A stretch of DNA of 64,000 bases. Origin: an uncultured Pseudomonadales bacterium (GTDB taxonomy: Bacteria > Pseudomonadota > Gammaproteobacteria > Pseudomonadales > CANNCY01). Below are positions 51,322 to 61,934 of this stretch, piece by piece. Under the pieces are notes generated by a model. The model searched no databases, had not been told where the DNA came from, and saw only the letters and a list, made by a program, of their open reading frames with translations. The DNA is taken from contig CANNCY010000002.1 of assembly GCA_947503335.1 (NCBI GenBank), positions 355,823 to 419,822 of the forward strand, written 5' to 3'. The position numbers and the translations under genes are program-made. Numbering within the stretch: position 1 is the first letter of the stretch; the number at the start of each line of letters is the position of its first letter.

Positions 51322-52269
51322 ATGAGCGAATTCAACCAGCCGCTAGGCGGCAATGAGATGCCCCGTTTTGGTGGCCCTTCAACAATGTTTCGTCTGCCAA
51401 GCGACAACGATTACTCTAACTTAGATATCGGTATTGTAGGCATTCCATTAGATATAGGTGCCTCTAATCGATCTGGCACGCGTTATGGGCCTCGTCAAAT
51501 AAGAAGCGAGTCAGTGCTTGTTAGACCCTACGGCATGGCGACTGGCGCGGCGCCCTTTGATTCATTTCAAATCGCTGACACTGGCGACGTTGCGATCAAT
51601 ACATTCAGCCTAGAAAAATCGATCGGCATTATCGAAGCCCACTATGACAAGATCGTAGCCGGTGATATGAAGCCCGTGACATTGGGAGGCGATCATACAG
51701 TCGCTCTACCTATCTTACGAGCCCTCGCCAAAAAGCACGGCCCGATGGCCCTAGTGCACGTAGACGCCCACGCTGATATCAATGATCACATGTTTGGTGA
51801 ACGTATTTGTCACGGCACAATCTTTAGACGCGCAATCGAAGAAGGCTTAATCGAACCCACCTGCATGACGCAAATCGGCCTACGTGCAACCGGGTATGCT
51901 GCAGACGATTTTGACTGGTCTAGGCAGCAGGGCGCTACCGTAGTGACCGCCGAAGAGTGCTGGCACAAATCGTTAGAGCCGCTAATGGCTGAGGTACGCG
52001 CTCGCATTGGTGATCGCCCAGTGTATCTAAGCTTTGACATCGACGGCCTAGATCCTTCTGTGGCACCGGGCACAGGCACGCCTGAGCCGGGTGGTTTAAC
52101 AACGATTCAAGGGCTAGAGATTATTCGAGGGATGTGGGGCACTAATTTAATTGGTGCAGATCTTGTAGAGGTATCGCCACCATACGACACCACCGGTAAT
52201 ACAGCGTTACTTGCTGCTAACCTTGTTTTTGAAATGCTTTGCAGTTTTAAAGGATGCGTGCGCCGATAG
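51322..52269 (+). CDS. speB: Agmatinase / guanidinobutyrase (ureohydrolase)
   Basis: LGGDH, HVDAHAD, SFDIDGLDP, APGTGTPEPGG, DLVEVSPPYD. Confidence 0.9.
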   Translation: MSEFNQPLGGNEMPRFGGPSTMFRLPSDNDYSNLDIGIVGIPLDIGASNRSGTRYGPRQIRSESVLVRPYGMATGAAPFDSFQIADTGDVAINTFSLEKSIGIIEAHYDKIVAGDMKPVTLGGDHTVALPILRALAKKHGPMALVHVDAHADINDHMFGERICHGTIFRRAIEEGLIEPTCMTQIGLRATGYAADDFDWSRQQGATVVTAEECWHKSLEPLMAEVRARIGDRPVYLSFDIDGLDPSVAPGTGTPEPGGLTTIQGLEIIRGMWGTNLIGADLVEVSPPYDTTGNTALLAANLVFEMLCSFKGCVRR

Positions 52270-52290
52270 CGCCGCATCAACCATCATTAA

Positions 52291-52974
52291 TTAACGGCGA
52301 GATACACTTGCCGCGCGCGCATCTAATCGCGCTAACAGCTCGTCCATCTGAGGGTCGTTAGATAGGCCTGCTCGTGGGCGAGCTTGTGCGGTAGCAGTAC
52401 TAGAGGCAGCTGCAGCCGTCGAAGCCTTTGCAGCAGCTTTAGCTGCTTTTGCAGTTTTACGCGCCTCAGCGCGTCTTTTATCTGCAGCTGACTTTTTCAT
52501 CGACAAACGACGCGCTTCAATAGCCACCATGACCTGATGCATTTCGTCGCGACCGCCGTCAGAACCTGATTTTTTCGCCGGTGCTTCTTTTTTGGGTTCA
52601 GTTTGCTTGCCAGCTTCGTTTAGCATGTCTTTAAAGGCATCTAACGCTAATGCGCTGTTTGCCTTAGCCTTTGGCTTAGCAGCCTTAGGCTTTTCTTTAC
52701 GCGGCATACCTTGCACAAGCGCACCCAGCTCATCTTGCGCATCGCGCAAAAGTTCGCGTGCTTCAGCCGAGCTATCTGCCTCGCCCCAGGTTTCAAGCTT
52801 ATAGTCTTCAACACCGTGAGCGATGAGGTGGTCCATCAAAGGGCCGTGATGTTCTTTTGCCTGCGACTCTAGCAATATACTCCACGATCGCTCTACCGTT
52901 TCGTTACTTGAAACAGCAAACCAAGATTCTGTCTTTTCGTGAAATACAGTAAAAACTAGCACGTCTACAACCAA
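52291..52974 (-). CDS. Hypothetical protein: GIY-YIG-like N-terminus and Lys/Ala-rich tail
   Basis: N-terminal pattern resembles a degenerate GIY-YIG domain; tail contains KPKAAKPKAK and AKAAKAAAKA. Start uncertain. Confidence 0.6.
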   Translation of the reverse strand: MVVDVLVFTVFHEKTESWFAVSSNETVERSWSILLESQAKEHHGPLMDHLIAHGVEDYKLETWGEADSSAEARELLRDAQDELGALVQGMPRKEKPKAAKPKAKANSALALDAFKDMLNEAGKQTEPKKEAPAKKSGSDGGRDEMHQVMVAIEARRLSMKKSAADKRRAEARKTAKAAKAAAKASTAAAASSTATAQARPRAGLSNDPQMDELLARLDARAASVSRR

Positions 52975-53199
52975 CCCTTAAGTTATTCAACCAATGAATA
53001 TAGATACAAATTAGGCCTTCTGCGACTGAAGGCTGAGCTAGTAATTATAATCCAATAATAAAAAAACGGTGTTGGGAAAACCCACTATAGCGGCTTAAAA
53101 GATGACCACACTGTGAACGACTTATTACCAACTATAGAGTTGAGAACTTGTGCCTATTCTGTTTAGTACCATTGCAGTAATTATGGAGACTCATCGGTC

Positions 53200-53313
53200 A
53201 TGACCGCTATCGTCGCTTTCACCGCCCTCGCTACCTTTTCGCCAGCCGCTGCTTCAGCCATGGCCGGCGTCACACTCGCCGGCTGTATTATGGCCTTTGG
53301 AGTGATCGTATAA
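53200..53313 (+). CDS. Candidate 37-aa uncharged hydrophobic peptide [37 protein letters not shown]
   Basis: Manual translation (below the ORF-track cut-off); GGAG at 53185-88 upstream of ATG 53200; overlaps the exporter 3' end by 60 nt on the opposite strand. Confidence 0.4.
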
Positions 53314-55302
53314 CCCCTTAGTTTTTCTATAGTGATCAAAGCGAATGGGCGCATCACCATGATGTACCCATATCTGTGTTGCCGGCATTTGCTCTAGCGC
53401 TGTTGCCACAATTGTGCTATTGCGCTCATCTAAGTGGGCGAGGGGCTCGTCAAGCAGCACTATCTTGGGCTGTTTAAAAAGTACACGCGCTATCGCTATA
53501 CGTGATCGTTGACCATCTGACAGTTCAACACTGTCTAATGGCGTATATAACCCCAATGGCAACGATAAAAACCACTGCCCTAAACCAACTCTCTGCAGGC
53601 TTTCGATAATCTTTGTCGCTTCAGAAACACCACATTCACCAAAGTTCTCGATCAACAACCCATCAACTGGGTCTGTAGACGACACCCAACCAATACTCGC
53701 TTCAAGCGCGATCGAACTAATCTGCTTTACGTGAACACCATCAAAATAAATGTCAGTATCGTCGCTCTGATAACCTAACAACGACCTTAAAAAGTAACTT
53801 TTTCCTGAGCCCGATGGCCCACTAAGCAACAACCGTTCTCCTGCTGATAATTCAAAGCTATCGATTACACTTGTCTTTGACGCGCTAAAGGTTACCGACC
53901 CTTTTAACGCTAGCGTAATCTTGTGCTGCTCAATTTCATCTCTTTCAATTAACTCCACGATACGCTCATCGTAAAGCGACATCATGCGCCGCTCTTGATG
54001 ATATTTGACCAGGCCTTCGCTGCGCACCGCTAACATTGCTCGCCAAGCAGCCAGGGCGGCGATCATACCTACAGATATTGTGCCCACATTAAATGCATTA
54101 ACCAATAACAGGTACATACCACCGAGTTCGATTGCTCTAATAGCGCTCACCAATGCCTTAAGGTTCACCAACAATCGCTGGGTAGCGCTTTCTGTTTCTC
54201 GCTGGCGCTCGCACAATGTTGCCCAATGATTATTTAATGATTCGCTACCCTGGTTAAAGCGCTTGGCGATCTTGGCCGCAGCCCATTGCGCAACATGGGT
54301 GCTTAAGTTAGCTTGCGCTGATAAATCTTGGGCTGCACGTCGCCGAACAACATTCATAACAAACGCGCTCAATAACATATGTACACCAATCGCAATTAAG
54401 CTTAATAAAGCAAGCGGCCAATAGTAGTAGGCCATCAACATCAAAGCAGTGACCAAAAAGACAATGTCGGCAAATGCATTAATCGCGCTGTGTATGCGAA
54501 TACGTACTAACTCGCTCAGGGTAGCTATTCGCGACAGTGTTTCACCCACGCTGTGGCCAACTGACAGACCGGTTTGCTCGATCAATTTTGTGTGCAAGAT
54601 TTGGCGCGATGCCAGCTTTGCCCCTAGATGATTTTCTAACACCAGCGTGTCTTTAACGGCGGTGATCACCGCGATAAGCATCCCCAACAAGAAGAACGCC
54701 CCTATACCAACATAGGTTTCGTTGCGCGCTGACGAAACCGCCAAATGGTCGATCACCCATTGCATTTGCATCGGGGTCATCACTAACAGCATTTGAGCTA
54801 CTAGTGTTAACAGCAGAATCAGCAATGCAACTGGCCGGTTAATGGGTACGGGTATTTTATTGCGCGTATCTTTAGCCACATGAGCTGGTGAGGCCACCAA
54901 TAGGCTGGTTAATGCCACACCGGTAAAACAACGATTAACGTCGTCTTTAGTCACCTCTACATCACCCTGTGCAGGGTCGTATACAAGCCAGTTACCATTT
55001 TTCATAACCCTAATCAGCACAACAAAGTGATTGTGCTGCCAATGCACAATTGCTGGCACGTGTTGCTTTAAAAAGTGCTCGGGTTCGGCCCTTACCGCAG
55101 TACTAGACACGCCCATTTGCGCTAACAATTGACGCAACTGCCCCATCGTGAGGGGCTTAACTGCCCAACTAAAACGTCGCCGCATCTCGAGCAGACTCGC
55201 TTGTGATGCTCGCCCTTTAGTCAACGCCCACGTGGCACAGCACAGACCGCATTCAAAGGGGTGCCCTTGACGCATAGTTGCGCCCAACGAACTATTCGCC
55301 AT
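53254..55302 (-). CDS. Peptidase C39-containing ABC exporter (CvaB/RaxB-like)
   Basis: QGHPFECG (Cys), HWQHNHFVV (His), YDPA (Asp); TM domain; [18 protein letters not shown]. Confidence 0.9.
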
Positions 55303-56476
55303 GACCGGTCATTCCTTTAGGTAGCAATAAGTAACTACCCAATGACATCGACTTGTCTTGAAGAGACACCACACCTTGGTCGCCGATAGCGATTGGGTCT
55401 GGCGGCACGCCGGTGAACGTGAATAGCGCTCGAAACCCCTGAGCACTATCAAGGGCCGTCGTATCAGATTGGTGTAAATCAACGTTGAATGCACCATGAT
55501 AAAGCCACGGCAGGTGGTTCAACTGTACCGATGCCCCACGCTTAATCAGTTCTAAGTCATCTGCGTCACCAATGCGCGTTTCAAAAGCAAGCTCGGCACC
55601 TATGGGCGTTATCAAAGCGATTGCTCGCCCAGCGGCGGGCTGCACACTTGATTTGTATAAATATACTCGCCCGCCAATCGGCGCCCGAAGCCAGTGTGAG
55701 GCACTTAAACGGTTACTGTTACTATCTAACTCTAACATCGCTAACTCTTGCTCGCCTTTCGCCTTGATTAACGCTAGCTGTTGTACCAGAAGCTGGTACT
55801 CTTCATCTGCTTTACGATGCTGCTCTGTTAATTGCGTCTTTTGCTGTAGCAATAGGCTTAGTTGTTGCATCGCCTCAATCTGTTGTACCTGGGCCTGCTC
55901 AGCTGCAGCTACTGATAGCTGTTTAGCCTCCACTAGGAGATCAATTGACGCCTTGCGCTTGGTTAAGCGCTTAGACAACGCGGTAGATTCTTTGATTAGC
56001 TGGCTCAGACTATCTTTGCGTTTTAACAGATTGTCTTGATGCCTTTGTAGCTGACTAAGCGCGTGCTCGATTCGCTTTTTTTCTATCGTAATACTTTGCT
56101 TTTGGTTGTCGATTTGTAAATCAATTAATTCGGCACGGGCGCGATGAAGCTCAGGCTGATTTAACGACTGCTGCCACGCGATCTTAGCAATCGGCTGCCC
56201 TTGTGATACCGACTGCCCGTCGTTAACTGCCCACTCTATCAAATAGGCCTGATGGGGCATCGTAATGCTTATAGGCGAAGGCACGGTGGTTACCTGACCT
56301 GTAAACCGCTTTATCGGGGCGTACTGCACCAACGCCAAGAGTGCGATGATGCCTATCACTAGTACAATCAGTAGTTGCGACCATCTAATCAGTACGTGAT
56401 CACGCGGCTTTAACTCACCATAGCGCTGTACTAACTGAAAAGATTCGGGCCTAAAGAGAGATGAAGTGTTGCTCAT
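55292..56476 (-). CDS. HlyD-family membrane fusion protein (CvaA/RaxA-like)
   Basis: SLFRPE N-terminus, single [15 protein letters not shown] lipoyl half-motif, coiled coil, LRAPIGG. Confidence 0.85.
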
Positions 56477-56511
56477 AACCGCCTCTGCTATTACACAGAG
56501 GCGAGGTTATG
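56474..56511 (-). promoter_or_regulatory. Hairpin sequestering the RBS and AUG of the HlyD gene
   Basis: mRNA CAUAACC-UC-GCCUCUG-(8-nt loop)-CAGAGGC-GGUUAUG: 14-bp stem with a 2-nt bulge. Confidence 0.6.
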
Positions 56512-56537
56512 CTGCTACAACAAAGGTAGGAAAATAA

Positions 56538-57338
56538 TTAAACGAAATGCTTAATCTTATCTTTATAACTGCGGCTCATTTTTAATTGCGCACCTGAGCT
56601 AAGCAATAAATTAAACTCGCCATTAATGTGCGAGATCACCTTATCTACGCACTTAAGATTGACAATAGTCGAACGGTGAACTCGTTGGAATAGCGCAGGA
56701 TTAAGCTGCTTTTCTAGATCTTTCATGGTGACACGCATGATATGGGTTTTACCATTTGCGTGAATACACATGTAATCACCAGCGGCATCAACCCACTCAA
56801 TATCGCGCACATTAACCAGCTCGATCGCACTACCATCTTTAATAGCGATACGCTCAGGCCAAGGATCTTTCGCTTGTTCTGAGGCCGTAAAGTCGTCAAT
56901 GGTAGACGCCTGCTCGCCCGTTAAGTTAACAATCAAATCCATCAAGCGTTGCTTCTGATCTGACAAACTAGCCTGCTCGTGCGCCTTTTCAACCCGCTCA
57001 ATAGCACGCGCTAAACGATCGTCTTCGATAGGCTTTAAGACATAGTCTACCGCTCGCACATCAAATGCATCTAACGCGAACTGCCCGTACGCTGTTACAA
57101 ACACAACAATCGGCATGTTGTCTGATTGCATCTCGCGAACCACATCAAAGCCGTTTTTACCGGGCATCTGAATATCTAGAAACACCAGATCAGGCTTTTC
57201 TCGGTGAATTGCCTCAATCGCTTCACGACCGTTGGTACATTCGCCGATCACTTCAATCTGAGGATAATTTTCTAAACGTAAACGCAGCCCTTTTCTAGCT
57301 AGGTTTTCGTCATCAACAATAATCGTTTTAATGGGCAT
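56538..57338 (-). CDS. LytTR-family response regulator
   Basis: VDDE, FLDIQMP, FVTAY, DYVLKP; LytTR domain FQRVHRSTIVN, MSRSY. Confidence 0.95.
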   Translation of the reverse strand: MPIKTIIVDDENLARKGLRLRLENYPQIEVIGECTNGREAIEAIHREKPDLVFLDIQMPGKNGFDVVREMQSDNMPIVVFVTAYGQFALDAFDVRAVDYVLKPIEDDRLARAIERVEKAHEQASLSDQKQRLMDLIVNLTGEQASTIDDFTASEQAKDPWPERIAIKDGSAIELVNVRDIEWVDAAGDYMCIHANGKTHIMRVTMKDLEKQLNPALFQRVHRSTIVNLKCVDKVISHINGEFNLLLSSGAQLKMSRSYKDKIKHFV

Positions 57339-57384
57339 AGCAGCATCCTACTTATGTTCTTTTGGGTTCTATTGTTGTTAGGTT

Positions 57385-58488
57385 TTATAAACTCGTTTGT
57401 TCAGTTTGGTACGGAATACGAATACTAATGCGTACACCACCACTTTTACGATTCGCAACTTGAAACGACTGATTCTTGCCGAATAGCTCGCGTAGACGAT
57501 CTCGTGTATTGCTAATGCCTACACCCGACGAACTAACTCGTAAGTGATAGTTCTCTGGCAAGCCTGGACCATCGTCAGTCAATTCTATTAACAGCTCATC
57601 AGCAAATACCTTAGCCGACACACCGATGGTACCGCCATCTTCATTGGCAGAAATCGCGTACTTAATCGAATTCTCTACTAGCGGCTGCAACAGCAAACTA
57701 GGTATTAGCCCGCTACGAGAGGCCTCGTCCATCTCTACCTCAAAGCGCAATCGCTCTTCGAAACGCACTTTTTCGATATCTAAATACAATTGTAGAGCGT
57801 CGACCTCTTGAGAAAGGGTCACTCGCGCCATCGGGTCACTATCTAGCGAATAACGTAAAAAACTAGATAGGCGGGTTACCATGGTATTTGCCGTATCATT
57901 TTCTTTAAGTAACACCAATGTAGAAATAGCATTAAGCGTGTTAAACAAGAAATGAGGGTTTAACTGATAGCGAAGCATTTTTAGCTGAGCCGACTGCGCC
58001 ATTGAGTCAGCTTTTAACGCGCGCTCTCTCTCGGCGAGCATTTGCTGGTAGTACTTGATGGCAAAATAAGCTGCGCTCCAACAGATCATCAACGCAAAAG
58101 CGACACCCACCCCGCTCGAGAAATACGTGTAGATATCAGTAATCGGGGGGCTTTTGTGGGCTTTTTCAGGCGCCACCATGATGTAGTAAAGCTTATTACG
58201 AATCACCCACCAGATAGCCGCCAGCACCATTGACGACACCACTACGGTCATCGCCCGCGCCCACAGCGGCCAATGCCAGCTGCCGCGATAGATATAGCGA
58301 AGTGAAAGCGATAAAACTGCGCCCACAAGGGTAACTACGGGCAGCCACAACACGTAGCGCTCAAAAATGCCGATATATACTAGCTGCGCTAGGTATGTCA
58401 GTGCCCAGGCGGTCCAACCGCCGATATGTAGCAACCAGAATTGAAACTCGCGGTTGTCAAAAAGTCGTTTTGTATCCATGAGACGCAT
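57385..58488 (-). CDS. LytS/YehU-family sensor histidine kinase
   Basis: Four TMs, LRYQLNPHFLFNTLN, IEKVRF, LQPLVENSIKY, DDGPG, GVGISN. Confidence 0.95.
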   Translation of the reverse strand: MRLMDTKRLFDNREFQFWLLHIGGWTAWALTYLAQLVYIGIFERYVLWLPVVTLVGAVLSLSLRYIYRGSWHWPLWARAMTVVVSSMVLAAIWWVIRNKLYYIMVAPEKAHKSPPITDIYTYFSSGVGVAFALMICWSAAYFAIKYYQQMLAERERALKADSMAQSAQLKMLRYQLNPHFLFNTLNAISTLVLLKENDTANTMVTRLSSFLRYSLDSDPMARVTLSQEVDALQLYLDIEKVRFEERLRFEVEMDEASRSGLIPSLLLQPLVENSIKYAISANEDGGTIGVSAKVFADELLIELTDDGPGLPENYHLRVSSSGVGISNTRDRLRELFGKNQSFQVANRKSGGVRISIRIPYQTEQTSL

Positions 58489-58628
58489 TATAACCAGATT
58501 CTATTCGGGTTTTTCGCTATTTACCGTATGTTTTCATCACTCTATCGCACTCAGCCTGCGGGTAAACGAAAGCAAACCAAGATAGACAGGTGTATAATTG
58601 TCTGAGCACCATAAATAGAGCCACCAGT

Positions 58629-61600
58629 ATGCGTCAGTTTGCGCTTTTTATCTTCGTTTTTTTAATGACAGCCTGCAATGCAGTGATGGCTCAATCAGGG
58701 CTACCGTCAGACGATGAGTTAAATGAGATTGTTGACACACAGATCGCAGGGCTCGCCGACGCCCCCGATGGTACCGAGACCGATCAGTTATCAGCCCTGC
58801 TCCAGCAAGCAAATACCCACATAACTGCTACTAAAACCCTGCGCGAACAGGCTAAGCAATACGCTGAAATCTCAGAAAACTATCCACAGCTGCTGGCTGA
58901 TATTCAAAGTAAACTCGACGATATTACTAAGCTTCAGCAAAACTCGTCGATAGAGCAGCTAGCCCAGCCATATCTTGAAAAGTCATCAGATCTAACTGCC
59001 AAACTGAGTACACTACAAAGTGAACTCAACAGCACCAATGCGCAAATTGCTTCGTTACAAGCCCGTCAAAACCTCATTGAGCCAGAGTATCTGTCTACTC
59101 AAAGCCAACTCGAAGCGCTAAATCAACAGCTCAACCAATTTGCTGCGGCCGACCAGGTACCCTCTCATCTAGATTATCTATCAGTCATCGTGCGTATTAA
59201 GCTTCGGGCTGCCAATCTTGAAAAGCTAGAGTCTGAACTGACTAGTTTTGACAACCGCATGTCTCTAGCTCGTACTAAACGCGAACAGTTAAACAATGAA
59301 CTCGCTCTGTACCAATCAATTAACAACCATATCCTGGCGCAGCGCAACAGCGAAAACAAGCAAACAGCGCAATCAATCGCAGAAGACAATTCGCGCCAGC
59401 TTGACTCTCTCGTAACCAATAACGATTATCTAAAGCTGGTCGTTAGTAAGAATAAAGAATTAACCGTATTACTAAATCGCATTTACGAAGACATCGACTC
59501 ACTAATCGAGCAGCGACAGCAGATTGATGCCGATTTTCAGAAAATATCTCAGGCCCACCAGCTTATTAACGAGCAGTTGTCGCTTGCAAATGACGATAGC
59601 TACGTTGGCGAGTTATTGCTAAAACAGCGCGCTACGGTCGTTTCTATTACTAAAAATCATTACGACGGCTCTGCATTCAACAGCCAGCTAACACAGGCCC
59701 GAAGGCTACAACTGCAAATAAACGACGAACAACTATCGCTAGAAAAACTGTTGACCGACGCAAAACAAGAATTGCTAAATGACGACTTAAAGATTGCGCT
59801 TAATTTAATTGGTACTCAGCGCCGAGATCTGTACAAGAAGATTTTAGAAGGTCTAAATTCTGAGATTAGCGAACTGATCTCACTATCGCTAACTAGAACA
59901 AAACTAGTGGCGAAAACAGACGAGATCTTAGATCGAATCGATGAACAACTGTTATGGATTGCCACCAACCAGCCCATCAGCATGCAGTGGTTTATCGATC
60001 TAACCCAAACAATTAAAGCGTTGCCCACTATTTTGGGCTCTAACTCACTCGCTGACACTATTGATAACGCGCCGACTAATCGTATCGTTGCTCTGATCGC
60101 AGGTATCGTTATCTTGTTATGGATTACAGCTTTTAAGGGGCGGCTATATGCGAGAGTGCAATCGCACAACACTCTAATACACCGACTAGCATCTGACAGT
60201 ATTCGATTTACCTTAGAGTCGTTAGCAGCGATATTCTTATTGGCGTTGCGTCTACCTCTACTACTAGTTTTAATTTCGTTTATCATCGCTGCTAGCCATT
60301 ACAACGGCAGTATTGAGGTAGCTATTTCATCGGCACTTGGGCGCTTTGCGTTTTCGTGGTTTATCTTAGATTTCATTCGGCGCCTGCTTCACCCATCTGG
60401 CGTGGCCGTGTTGCATTTTAAAATGCCGGCTTCAATGGCCACGGCACTAAATAGCGTTATCACCCAGAGCCTATACACTATTCCTGTTATCTTAGGCTTC
60501 GCAGAATTTTCATCGGCGTTCTCAGACCAACGCGTTGACGACACCATTGGCCGACTGCTATTTATTTTCTTAAGCCTAATTATCGCCTGGCAATTTAGGC
60601 GTGTTCGCAACATCGTGGTGTCGTTAACACCTGAATCTAAGCAACACGGTTGGCGATTTCAACTGTTCGCAACAGGCTTTGTATTCTGCTATCTAAGCTT
60701 GGTTGTATTGGCGATTGCCTCGGCTATTGGCTATCACTATACATCAATCATCATTGCCCAAGATCTTATTCTCACTCTCTGCGCGGCGCTAGTTACGCTT
60801 TTGGCCTACGCACTATTATTTAGATGGCTATTGGTTACCCGTAAACAGATGTTGTTTACCCAGCTTAAGCAGCAAAGAGAAAACGCTGCCAAACTTGAAA
60901 ACAGCAATCAAACGGCAAGCGAATCTCAAGAATCAGCCAGTGATAGCGCTGAAGCAAAAATCGCAGAAGTGAACTCTATTCAATCGCAGGCGTTATCATT
61001 AGTACGTATTGGCTGCACCATATTACTTATTTCGCTAACACTCATGGTGTGGGATAACGCCGGGCCAATATTTGGAGTGCTCGAAAACACTGCACTTTGG
61101 TCTGGCGTGCAAACCGTTAACGGCGAGAAGACAATAGAAACAGTGTCGCTGCTGAATCTAATCATGGCGATTTTTATTTTATTGATTACCTTCGCCTCGG
61201 CTCGCAACTTACCCGGCCTTGTTGAAATGGCCACACAAAAATACATGCACACTGATGCTGGTGCGCGTTATGCAACGGTTACGCTTACTCGATACCTTAT
61301 TATCGTTGTTGGCGTTATTATCAGCTTCAACGCAATCGGTATAAGCTGGTCAAAAATTCAGTGGCTAGTTGCGGCGATTGGTGTTGGGCTAGGCTTTGGC
61401 TTACAAGAGATCGTAGCCAACTTTGTGGGTGGTTTAGTCATTTTGTTTGAGCGCCCACTGCGCATTGGCGACACCGTAACCATTGGTGATCAAAGCGGCA
61501 CGGTAACCAACATAAGTATGCGCACTACCACCATAGCCGATTGGGATAATAAAGAGATTGTTGTACCCAATAAAATGTTTATCAGTGATAGTTTGATTAA

Positions 61601-61934
61601 CTGGACACTGTCGTCAGACGTTACCCGTTTGCACTTTAGTATTGGTGTTGCATACGGTAGCGATACTGAGCTAACACTTCAGTGTATTAATGATGTTGTG
61701 GCAGCCCATGAAGAGATCTTAGACGAGCCTGCACACAATGTTTACTTCTTACAGTTTGGCGATAGCGCGCTTATTTTTGAAGTGCGATGCTTTGTGTCAG
61801 GGGCAGCACGAAGACTACCCGTAACACATGATTTACATATGAGAATCGACCAGAAACTGCGCGATGCTAATGTTGAAATTGCATTCCCGCAGTTAGACGT
61901 TCATCTTAAAACTGATCAGTTGCAAGACCCATAA
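58629..61934 (+). CDS. mscK: Large MscS-family mechanosensitive channel (MscK/MscM-like)
   Basis: Signal peptide, long periplasmic coiled coil, multi-TM, GVGLGFGLQEIVANF, ERPLRIGD, VPNK, IAFPQLDVH. Confidence 0.85.
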   Translation: MRQFALFIFVFLMTACNAVMAQSGLPSDDELNEIVDTQIAGLADAPDGTETDQLSALLQQANTHITATKTLREQAKQYAEISENYPQLLADIQSKLDDITKLQQNSSIEQLAQPYLEKSSDLTAKLSTLQSELNSTNAQIASLQARQNLIEPEYLSTQSQLEALNQQLNQFAAADQVPSHLDYLSVIVRIKLRAANLEKLESELTSFDNRMSLARTKREQLNNELALYQSINNHILAQRNSENKQTAQSIAEDNSRQLDSLVTNNDYLKLVVSKNKELTVLLNRIYEDIDSLIEQRQQIDADFQKISQAHQLINEQLSLANDDSYVGELLLKQRATVVSITKNHYDGSAFNSQLTQARRLQLQINDEQLSLEKLLTDAKQELLNDDLKIALNLIGTQRRDLYKKILEGLNSEISELISLSLTRTKLVAKTDEILDRIDEQLLWIATNQPISMQWFIDLTQTIKALPTILGSNSLADTIDNAPTNRIVALIAGIVILLWITAFKGRLYARVQSHNTLIHRLASDSIRFTLESLAAIFLLALRLPLLLVLISFIIAASHYNGSIEVAISSALGRFAFSWFILDFIRRLLHPSGVAVLHFKMPASMATALNSVITQSLYTIPVILGFAEFSSAFSDQRVDDTIGRLLFIFLSLIIAWQFRRVRNIVVSLTPESKQHGWRFQLFATGFVFCYLSLVVLAIASAIGYHYTSIIIAQDLILTLCAALVTLLAYALLFRWLLVTRKQMLFTQLKQQRENAAKLENSNQTASESQESASDSAEAKIAEVNSIQSQALSLVRIGCTILLISLTLMVWDNAGPIFGVLENTALWSGVQTVNGEKTIETVSLLNLIMAIFILLITFASARNLPGLVEMATQKYMHTDAGARYATVTLTRYLIIVVGVIISFNAIGISWSKIQWLVAAIGVGLGFGLQEIVANFVGGLVILFERPLRIGDTVTIGDQSGTVTNISMRTTTIADWDNKEIVVPNKMFISDSLINWTLSSDVTRLHFSIGVAYGSDTELTLQCINDVVAAHEEILDEPAHNVYFLQFGDSALIFEVRCFVSGAARRLPVTHDLHMRIDQKLRDANVEIAFPQLDVHLKTDQLQDP

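Follow-up and report, generated by a model that had tools for sequence, protein, structure and literature searches.

What would a LytS-class sensor pair be doing in one row of genes with a peptidase-containing exporter in a Gram-negative bacterium? The question is raised by a stretch of 64,000 nucleotides from an uncultured Pseudomonadales bacterium (here called the window; positions 355,823 to 419,822 of the forward strand of contig CANNCY010000002.1, assembly GCA_947503335.1). In this window, four consecutive minus-strand open reading frames (ORFs) encode a membrane histidine kinase, a response regulator with a LytTR DNA-binding domain, a periplasmic adaptor and an ATP-binding cassette (ABC) exporter with a C39 peptidase domain, i.e. 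a peptidase-containing ABC transporter (PCAT). A sequence-only reading of this stretch had proposed a peptide-signalling or microcin system. The microcin side of that proposal has gained from our analysis, in that the genome encodes a real PCAT with an adaptor as well as double-glycine peptides, while the signalling side has lost, in that there is no pheromone gene at the operon and LytTR boxes were not detected. The reading that we favor, tentatively and with slightly less than even confidence, is that the locus is part of a split class-II-microcin-like export system in which the exporter genes fill the slot where an exporter-associated LytS/LytTR sensor pair carries its cargo.

A sensor pair and a predicted peptide exporter in one row of genes

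The kinase gene (57385..58488, minus strand, 367 aa; assigned from Pfam, hydropathy, relatives and start-site context) is followed by the regulator gene (56538..57338, minus strand, 266 aa; Pfam, NCBIfam and orthologue identity), the gene for a divergent adaptor, or membrane fusion protein (55292..56476, minus strand, 394 aa; HMMER, an AlphaFold model, Foldseek and hydropathy) and the PCAT gene (53254..55302, minus strand, 682 aa; Pfam, NCBIfam and matches to PCAT1 and 6mpz). The intergenic gaps are 46 and 61 bp, and the PCAT gene then begins within the adaptor gene, with an overlap of 11 bp, which agrees exactly with the layout described in the sequence-only reading. A scan found no terminator-like or promoter-like site between the four genes, which is weak evidence, and placed a terminator-like hairpin 221 bp past the PCAT stop codon (53015..53033, minus strand). 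This hairpin is the likely end of the operon, again a weak indication given that shuffled versions of the region contain more sites of this kind. The four genes are probably co-transcribed.

The exporter is, by its sequence, a genuine PCAT of a rare lineage with four members known in 5.8 billion proteins. Its Peptidase_C39 domain (PF03412, residues 10-132) scores 72.2 bits against a cut-off of 22 and is accompanied by ABC_membrane (31 bits, cut-off 28) and ABC_tran (74.5 bits), and the translation contains the nucleotide-binding motifs Walker A, signature and Walker B, including LLDEP. Residues Q12, C18 (in FECG), H92 (in HNHFVV) and D109 (in DPA), together with the ATPase motifs, are invariant in all four members of the subfamily, and the double-glycine protease domain structure 6mpz has identical residues in the HNHFVV and DPA columns; the Cys, His and Asp residues of the peptidase had been correctly recognized at the outset. 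We take these columns, with Q12 as the oxyanion residue, to be the catalytic positions of C39. The C39-like domains of haemolysin- and adhesin-type exporters do not retain catalytic residues. A profile of the subfamily matches the solved PCAT1 (4ry2) over its full length with 177 bits, and HlyB and ComA also match. Cleavage and export of double-glycine peptides are thus the predicted functions of this protein.

Among 5.8 billion clustered proteins, only three relatives have more than 30% identity to the PCAT (45%, 38% and 36%), and all three are metagenomic; past those three, identity is at most 29%, and relatives at 26-29% are labelled CvaB, MchF or RaxB by JGI. When 185,579 species genomes and the JGI metagenomes were scanned, the PCAT loci retrieved had 22-30% identity only, two of 40 genomes of the same order had a PCAT match at E<=1e-30 (25-27% identity), and the protein falls below every NCBIfam cut-off considered (NHLM, LssB, HlyB, bacteriocin_ABC; best 126-142 bits against 500-853).

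A minor observation concerns the end of the PCAT gene. The C-terminal tail (K-G-H-N/D-T/A-A-G/S) is conserved in three of the four subfamily members, and a very hydrophobic 37-aa ORF (53200-53313, plus strand) lies antisense to the last PCAT codons; the constraint could lie on either strand.

The third gene encodes what the AlphaFold model indicates is a very divergent periplasmic adaptor. The label HlyD, which the sequence-only reading had given it, holds for the fold, while no Pfam family matched at E<=0.001. Curated models left traces (TIGR01843, E=2e-4; HlyD_3, E=0.024; Biotin_lipoyl_2, E=0.005), and a word-indexed protein search returned the protein itself only. An exhaustive HMMER search of 1.84 billion representatives gave 84 matches at E<=0.001, self included, of which two were full-length relatives (34% and 26% identity) and the remainder weak matches to proteins of ~410 aa; all seven of the weak matches that were tested carry HlyD_3 and HlyD_D23. 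The AlphaFold model, built on 16 sequences with a mean pLDDT (predicted local distance difference test) of 83, has an N-terminal helix, a lipoyl-like domain with beta strands, a hairpin of two helices of ~75 residues each (108-183 and 189-259) and a beta-barrel, and hydropathy places a single hydrophobic helix at 35-53. In Foldseek, the model matched EmrA (E=6e-14) as well as MacA and HlyD (5c22). It is because of these relatives, this fold and these structural matches that we assign the protein as an adaptor. The possibility that it is a retained RND-type (resistance-nodulation-division) adaptor was rejected, there being no similarity to the adaptor of the RND-linked locus in genome G108 (E=3.2).

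The kinase is of the LytS/AlgZ-type PF06580 class and not of the AgrC/ComD pheromone-receptor class, as the sequence-only reading had cautioned. It has His_kinase (PF06580, 95 bits) and HATPase_c domains, neither a 5TMR-LYT nor a GAF domain was found in its 367 residues by Pfam, and hydropathy predicts approximately four hydrophobic N-terminal segments within the first 145 residues, joined by short loops without a sizeable outer loop. To our knowledge, pheromone-receptor kinases of the AgrC/ComD class lack PF06580. AlgZ is probably similar to the present kinase in size. The kinase is widespread, with at least 8000 candidates matching at E<=1e-10; past the two closest full-length relatives, the best among the matches listed are ~50% identical, are annotated as LytT/LytS-family and come from Halieaceae, Pseudomonadales, Thalassotalea, Bowmanella and Parahaliea. 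The regulator has Response_reg and LytTR (PF04397, 79.8 bits) domains. Its best NCBIfam match is BtsR at 183.3 bits, below the cut-off of 246 (LytR, 148.5 against 375), and it shares 55% identity with the regulator encoded at an orthologous, RND-linked locus.

Linkage of the sensor pair and the exporter in other genomes

Is the association of these genes kept elsewhere? The two best relatives of the kinase, 76% and 74% identical to it, lie one each on JGI contigs of 40743 and 21962 nt, and the PCAT relatives at 38% and 36% identity lie on contigs of the same two sizes. From this match in contig size, gene order there not having been seen, we infer that kinase and PCAT are co-located in the two nearest relatives, at most 41 kb and at most 22 kb apart, and that the linkage of sensor pair and PCAT has been kept in a narrow lineage. 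In other genomes of the order, the kinase is followed by the regulator at 31 of 31 loci, and a PCAT is present at none of them (0/31; 13 loci come from the 14 genomes with matches at E<=1e-60, G101 having been left out because of a contig edge, and 18 from a further sample). Likewise, a LytS/LytTR-type pair is present at none of 29 distant PCAT loci, where hidden Markov models of the kinase and the regulator gave generic matches of 17-29 bits only, which resolved as HisKA hybrid kinases or a LuxR-type regulator. The comparison of gene neighbourhoods proposed in the sequence-only reading thus cuts both ways: it speaks for the linkage in the two nearest relatives and against it elsewhere. The same reading had named habitual separation of the two-component orthologues from the exporter as a sign against its proposal, and outside the narrow lineage separation is largely what is seen.

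Such a distribution is what an incidental or structural adjacency would produce. In that case, a mobile adaptor-PCAT pair would have landed downstream of a conserved housekeeping pair and be read through or separately expressed, while the regulator would control other targets. The divergence on what appear to be the same contigs points in this direction too, being very unequal (74-76% identity for the kinase, 36-38% for the PCAT), as do the adaptor relatives at 34% and 26% identity, whose contigs may or may not be those of kinase and PCAT; a hairpin that masks the adaptor start and the lack of detectable LytTR boxes, both described below, fit as well. By contrast, mere adjacency does not readily account for a co-location that is kept in both nearest relatives despite the strong divergence of the exporter, nor for four genes on one strand with short gaps and no terminator-like site between them. 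Moreover, the adaptor and PCAT genes are not atypical in G+C content (GC; 48.5% against 47.5% for the contig), and pairs of the same kinase clade adjoin other exporters in 11 of 23 loci, which argues that the downstream slot holds regulated cargo. We consider an incidental adjacency unlikely, if far from negligible. Two explanations would suit the unequal divergence itself: the exporter may have co-evolved and diversified with peptides that change fast, or the cargo may have been replaced repeatedly.

Some of the distant PCAT loci have two-component genes of their own. In the alphaproteobacteria Nitratireductor and Chelativorans and in an alphaproteobacterial metagenome-assembled genome of Paracoccus, a hybrid HisKA kinase of ~560 aa is encoded within a few kb of the PCAT (L029:13122-14801, L026:5428-7104 and L030:6163-7854, respectively), and the locus in Aureimonas has a LuxR-type regulator (L027:7810-8508). 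PCATs beside two-component genes of other classes may therefore be a wider theme.

Some orthologous sensor pairs adjoin exporters of other superfamilies

Close orthologues of the kinase (43-54% identity) occur in genomes without this PCAT. In a maximum-likelihood tree of 16 kinases, there are two clades with 100/99 support each. The PCAT-linked kinases form a 100/100 clade that is sister (88/92) to a group including RND-linked loci; both belong to one of the two 100/99 clades, in which a further RND-linked locus has a lower branching point. From 400 sampled genomes of the order, we obtained 23 other loci of the clade with the window kinase (matching at E<=1e-85), and as these loci come from 10 genera and are related, the counts from them are not independent and overstate independence. 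An AcrB-family RND pump and its adaptor are encoded directly downstream and co-oriented in 7 of the 23 loci, and one gene further on in one more; directly upstream and co-oriented, a plain ABC exporter of ~600 aa without a C39 domain is encoded in another three (L081, L082 and L086). The RND-linked loci (L059, L060, L062, L079, L080, L087, L092 and L093) have an unusual gene order with the pump first and the adaptor second.

Because pairs of this clade adjoin RND pumps and a plain ABC exporter in other genomes, we read the sensor pair as exporter-associated. The presence of exporters of three different superfamilies beside the clade in different genera suggests a modular exporter-controlling sensor. 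Most simply read, the sensor pairs of this clade tend to have an exporter as cargo beside them, and in the window lineage that cargo is the adaptor-PCAT pair.

The more distant kinase clade (35-39% identity by tblastn) has neighbours of a different kind. Downstream of the regulator, GH3 glycosidases with or without GH16 are encoded in 4 of 8 loci (L064, L065, L067 and L068), a TonB-dependent receptor in 1 of 8 and other genes in the rest. The GH3/GH16 neighbours suggest LytTR control of beta-glucan use.

Candidate cargo of the exporter

If the exporter is a functional PCAT, what would it export? The genome (3.22 Mb in 13 contigs, 99.4% complete) has three Peptidase_C39 matches only, and the window exporter is its sole catalytic-type PCAT. 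The second match is a partial C39-like domain (24 bits) adjoining a giant ORF (at least 2411 aa), an HlyD and an OmpA protein; the third has 23.9 bits in the genome-wide search with no C39 on the called ORF, and adjoins an HlyD and a Big-domain protein. These two further type I secretion loci (C2 ~455-466 kb, L039:47-11302, and C4 ~324-329 kb, L043:10442-15444) can be classed as adhesin-type type I exporters because of these neighbours and their weak or absent C39 domain.

A genome scan for short ORFs with double-glycine leaders, which the sequence-only reading had advised, was rewarding. Among small ORFs not contained in long ones, a permissive pattern search gave 138 double-glycine matches and a position-specific leader scan gave 63, of which 11 have a ribosome-binding site; two matches in ORFs of 131-700 aa were judged false positives from sequence. 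Convincing double-glycine peptides number two genome-wide, and they are encoded in tandem on the contig of the operon. The first (C2:679996-680154) has 52 aa with a predicted mature peptide of 37 residues (net charge -5, average mass 4290.6 Da), and the second (C2:680268-680468) has 66 aa with a predicted mature peptide of 51 residues (net charge -4, average mass 5420.9 Da). Both have intact frames, strong ribosome-binding sites and a leader of 15 residues that ends in GG and is hydrophobic at positions -4, -7, -12 and -15. The mature peptides are both acidic, neither contains cysteine, and the 37-residue product is hydrophilic. The peptides are followed by a 65-aa ORF with two hydrophobic helices, whose product is a candidate immunity-like protein, and then by an AAA_21 ATPase (region C2:679996-680695).

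Neither peptide belongs to a Pfam family. Among the language-model neighbours of the 66-aa peptide are MccV and Bacteriocin_IIc/ComC clusters, but at no more than 0.80-0.81, so that they serve only as a lead, and a complex prediction of the C39 domain (residues 1-140) with the 66-aa precursor (score 0.06, mark 0.32) weighs neither way. Because the census of the genome gives one catalytic PCAT and two double-glycine peptides, we regard the peptides as the probable cargo of the window exporter, which would be the only enzyme in the genome suited to process them. For the outer-membrane step, Pfam analysis of the flanks found neither a TolC-family gene (outer-membrane factor) nor an enzyme modifying ribosomally synthesized peptides (RiPPs) adjoining the operon, as the sequence-only reading had observed; the genome has seven OEP/TolC-family ORFs, which could supply the channel.

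An alternative is that the exporter has nothing to do with these peptides. It would then handle another or a lost substrate, or be an efflux or self-protection module that has replaced an RND pump, with the peptide locus an orphan remnant. An RND pump does stand in the equivalent slot in seven of the 23 orthologous loci, with one more nearby, and no substrate gene is present at the exporter locus itself, where a double-glycine leader is absent from all 80 ORFs of >=20 aa between 52200 and 58700. Operon and peptide locus are ~266 kb apart, and the latter has a GC of 41.7% against 47.5% for the contig, so that it may be a separate acquisition. However, the Cys, His and Asp residues and the ATPase motifs are invariant in four highly diverged members, implying selection for leader cleavage; the exporter is the only catalytic-type PCAT in a nearly complete genome; and in the two peptide genes the frames are intact, the leaders canonical and the ribosome-binding sites strong. 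We regard an unrelated substrate as improbable, and a microcin-like export role as likely.

A few kb upstream of the peptide genes (L038:4973-10023, minus strand), there are an ABC ATPase, three ORFs that are adaptor-like by sequence and a large membrane ORF.

Regulatory elements of the operon

At the upstream end of the operon, a TATAAT hexamer (58487..58492, minus strand; from the sequence and orthologue comparison) is a putative -10 element. The second ATG of the kinase gene follows 7 nt downstream, and the same TATAAT-N6-ATG arrangement is found upstream of the kinase orthologues in G108, G061 and G100 (L059, L060 and L061). A consensus promoter scan did not call this site, there being no good -35 element. 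The arrangement suggests that kinase mRNAs in this clade, the operon transcript included, are leaderless and that the window kinase starts at the second ATG at 58479, not at 58488.

A second element lies in the 61-bp spacer between the regulator and adaptor genes, where an RNA hairpin (56474..56511, minus strand) is predicted from folding. The spacer region folds with -26.4 kcal/mol over 84 nt (z = -4.56), and none of 200 shuffles was as stable. Both the GAGG ribosome-binding site of the adaptor gene and its start codon (AUG) are paired within the hairpin, which is not followed by a T-run and could gate translation of the exporter genes.

A model for sensor-linked peptide export

We suggest the following model. 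A membrane kinase of the LytS/AlgZ class and a LytTR regulator would share a four-gene operon with an exporter of the tripartite type, in which the periplasmic adaptor and the C39 ABC transporter would be joined by a TolC-family outer-membrane channel encoded elsewhere in the genome. The exporter would recognize the 15-residue double-glycine leader, the Cys/His/Asp peptidase would cut after Gly-Gly, and the mature peptide would be pumped out at the expense of ATP. The most likely substrates would be the two tandem peptides encoded ~266 kb away beside the candidate immunity-like protein. The sensor pair would respond to a membrane-level cue as an exporter-associated sensor rather than act as a dedicated pheromone receptor. 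In the window lineage, this pair would have acquired the PCAT-adaptor cargo, the expression of which it may drive or tune.

Several observations weigh against this model. The candidate substrates are encoded far from the operon, and a search of 200 other genomes of the order gave no homologue of the 66-aa peptide, so that co-occurrence says nothing on its link to the PCAT. No recognized exporter stands beside the pair in 12 of the 23 orthologous loci; ORF calls were untidy in four of these 12, and tblastn found no exporter there. The relatedness of these loci and the reliance of the linkage in the nearest relatives on contig sizes count on the same side. The spacer hairpin could uncouple exporter output from transcription of the kinase and regulator genes. 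LytTR proteins bind paired direct repeats. Direct repeats (8-nt seed, within 40 nt) were not found in 56400-58720, direct-repeat LytTR boxes were found neither in the peptide promoter nor in the orthologous spacers, with the proviso that the box of this regulator clade may differ, and the peptide promoter and the upstream regions of the operon have no convincing 10-mer motif in common.

The last of these observations bear also on the idea of a true Gram-negative pheromone loop, in which an exported peptide, e.g. the 37-residue product, would be sensed by the kinase, and the LytTR regulator would induce the operon and the peptide genes in the manner of ComABCDE or Blp. A LytTR regulator, a kinase and a PCAT in one operon are what such a loop would have, the linkage is kept in the nearest relatives, and one of the two double-glycine peptides is non-hydrophobic and acidic, unlike a pore-former. 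However, the kinase is a PF06580 protein with approximately four helices and short loops rather than a member of the AgrC/ComD class, and its close orthologues stand beside RND or ABC pumps or nothing in genomes that lack the PCAT. In addition, the operon holds no peptide gene, as the absence of leaders among the ORFs of the locus attests, and neither direct-repeat boxes nor a motif common with the peptide promoter were found. Such a sense-and-secrete circuit is speculative, and we give it little credence. In an evolutionary variant, to which we attach equally low weight, a marine-type gammaproteobacterial lineage would have gained an independent analogue of ComABCDE when a PCAT was swapped into the slot that relatives fill with RND pumps, which would give an autoregulated operon with peptide feedback on the kinase.

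Relation to known systems

Export of double-glycine peptides by a PCAT and an adaptor is established in Proteobacteria in the form of class II microcin systems. As described in PMC10233263, a class II microcin system consists of a pre-microcin, an immunity protein, a PCAT, a fusion protein and TolC, of which the first four are encoded close together; the same source presents export of double-glycine peptides through PCAT, adaptor and TolC as the scheme of this class, and mentions that the microcin MccPDI is under the control of a two-component system, EnvZ/OmpR. Systems of the class II microcin type are reported to be widespread in Enterobacterales (PMC9746304), and there are reports from Acinetobacter (PMC10333792) and Moraxella (PMC2761928). 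The present system resembles these (CvaA/CvaB/TolC with CvaC and Cvi) in having a PCAT and a fusion protein with the outer-membrane factor encoded elsewhere, a double-glycine leader of ~15 residues, and a small membrane immunity-like gene beside the peptides. The genome has genes of all five kinds, but the exporter lies at its ~266-kb distance from the peptide and immunity-like genes instead of clustering with them, which weighs against our model. It also differs in that the exporter shares an operon with a two-component pair, in that the PCAT is far below NCBIfam cut-offs and the adaptor is missed by Pfam, and in that an antimicrobial role is here a prediction from the genes.

Gram-positive pheromone circuits (ComABCDE, BlpABCRH and Pln) likewise link a C39 ABC exporter of double-glycine peptides genetically with a membrane kinase and a LytTR regulator. 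In contrast to those systems, the present kinase is of the PF06580 LytS/AlgZ type, no pheromone gene stands beside the two-component genes, paired direct-repeat boxes were not detected at the locus, and a Gram-negative host needs an adaptor and an outer-membrane channel. BtsS/BtsR, YpdA/YpdB, LytS/LytR and AlgZ(FimS)/AlgR have the same pair of domains as the present kinase and regulator, but the regulator scores below the BtsR and LytR equivalog cut-offs, and its pair has an exporter as neighbouring cargo.

Sensor pairs beside tripartite exporters are also seen in AdeRS-AdeABC and BaeSR-MdtABCD, and the nearest orthologues of the present pair stand directly upstream of an RND pump and adaptor. 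AdeRS and BaeSR use OmpR-type regulators, and they differ from the window system in that the cargo of the latter is a peptide-processing ABC exporter and not a drug pump. RaxB/RaxA of Xanthomonas is another proteobacterial PCAT with an adaptor, consistent with the RaxB label that JGI gives to some of the relatives at 26-29% identity. The peptide that it secretes, RaxX, has a double-glycine leader and serves as a signal and not as a toxin; RaxX is tyrosine-sulfated by an adjacent enzyme, and the rax genes are clustered; unlike the Rax locus, the present locus has no modifying enzyme.

Double-glycine peptides of Gram-negative bacteria have been surveyed in silico before. In a literature search that covered subscription journals thinly, we found no report of a LytTR pair tied to a proteobacterial PCAT or to a microcin, the matches for LytTR with double-glycine peptides or microcins being Gram-positive by title and those for Gram-negative PCATs with two-component systems describing no such link in title or opening of the abstract, and a LytTR-regulated RND pump appears in no title among the matches listed; the term LytTR does not occur in a review of efflux regulation (PMC10295115). 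What goes beyond known systems is a very rare PCAT-adaptor lineage that diverges far faster than the accompanying sensor pair, a proteobacterial PCAT that shares its operon with a LytTR pair, and a LytS/LytTR sensor clade tied to exporters of three superfamilies. If the LytTR protein regulates the exporter, as we suggest, the locus would be a tractable case of microcin-like export wired to a membrane sensor; if the pheromone loop were true, it would add a rare Gram-negative example of peptide quorum sensing.

Flanking genes

According to Pfam, the operon is flanked by an MscK-like channel, an ORF without assignment and an arginase, and an Rfam scan of 52000-59000 gave no match at E<=1. The unassigned ORF lies downstream of the PCAT gene (52291-52974, minus strand, 227 aa) and has no Pfam or NCBIfam family. 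We rejected it as a substrate or accessory of the exporter since it has no double-glycine leader and is separated from the PCAT gene by the terminator-like hairpin. Its N-terminal part is conserved and is followed by a Lys/Ala-rich tail, weak homologues are present in 7 of 120 genomes of the order, and a language model places it near clusters resembling GIY-YIG nucleases (0.92), which is no more than a lead. On the other side, the gene for the MscK-like mechanosensitive channel (58590-61934, plus strand; Pfam) is divergent from the kinase gene. In genome G287, an MscS-family channel is encoded ~3.5 kb downstream of the orthologous pair (L095:7464-9800), a parallel that may be coincidence.

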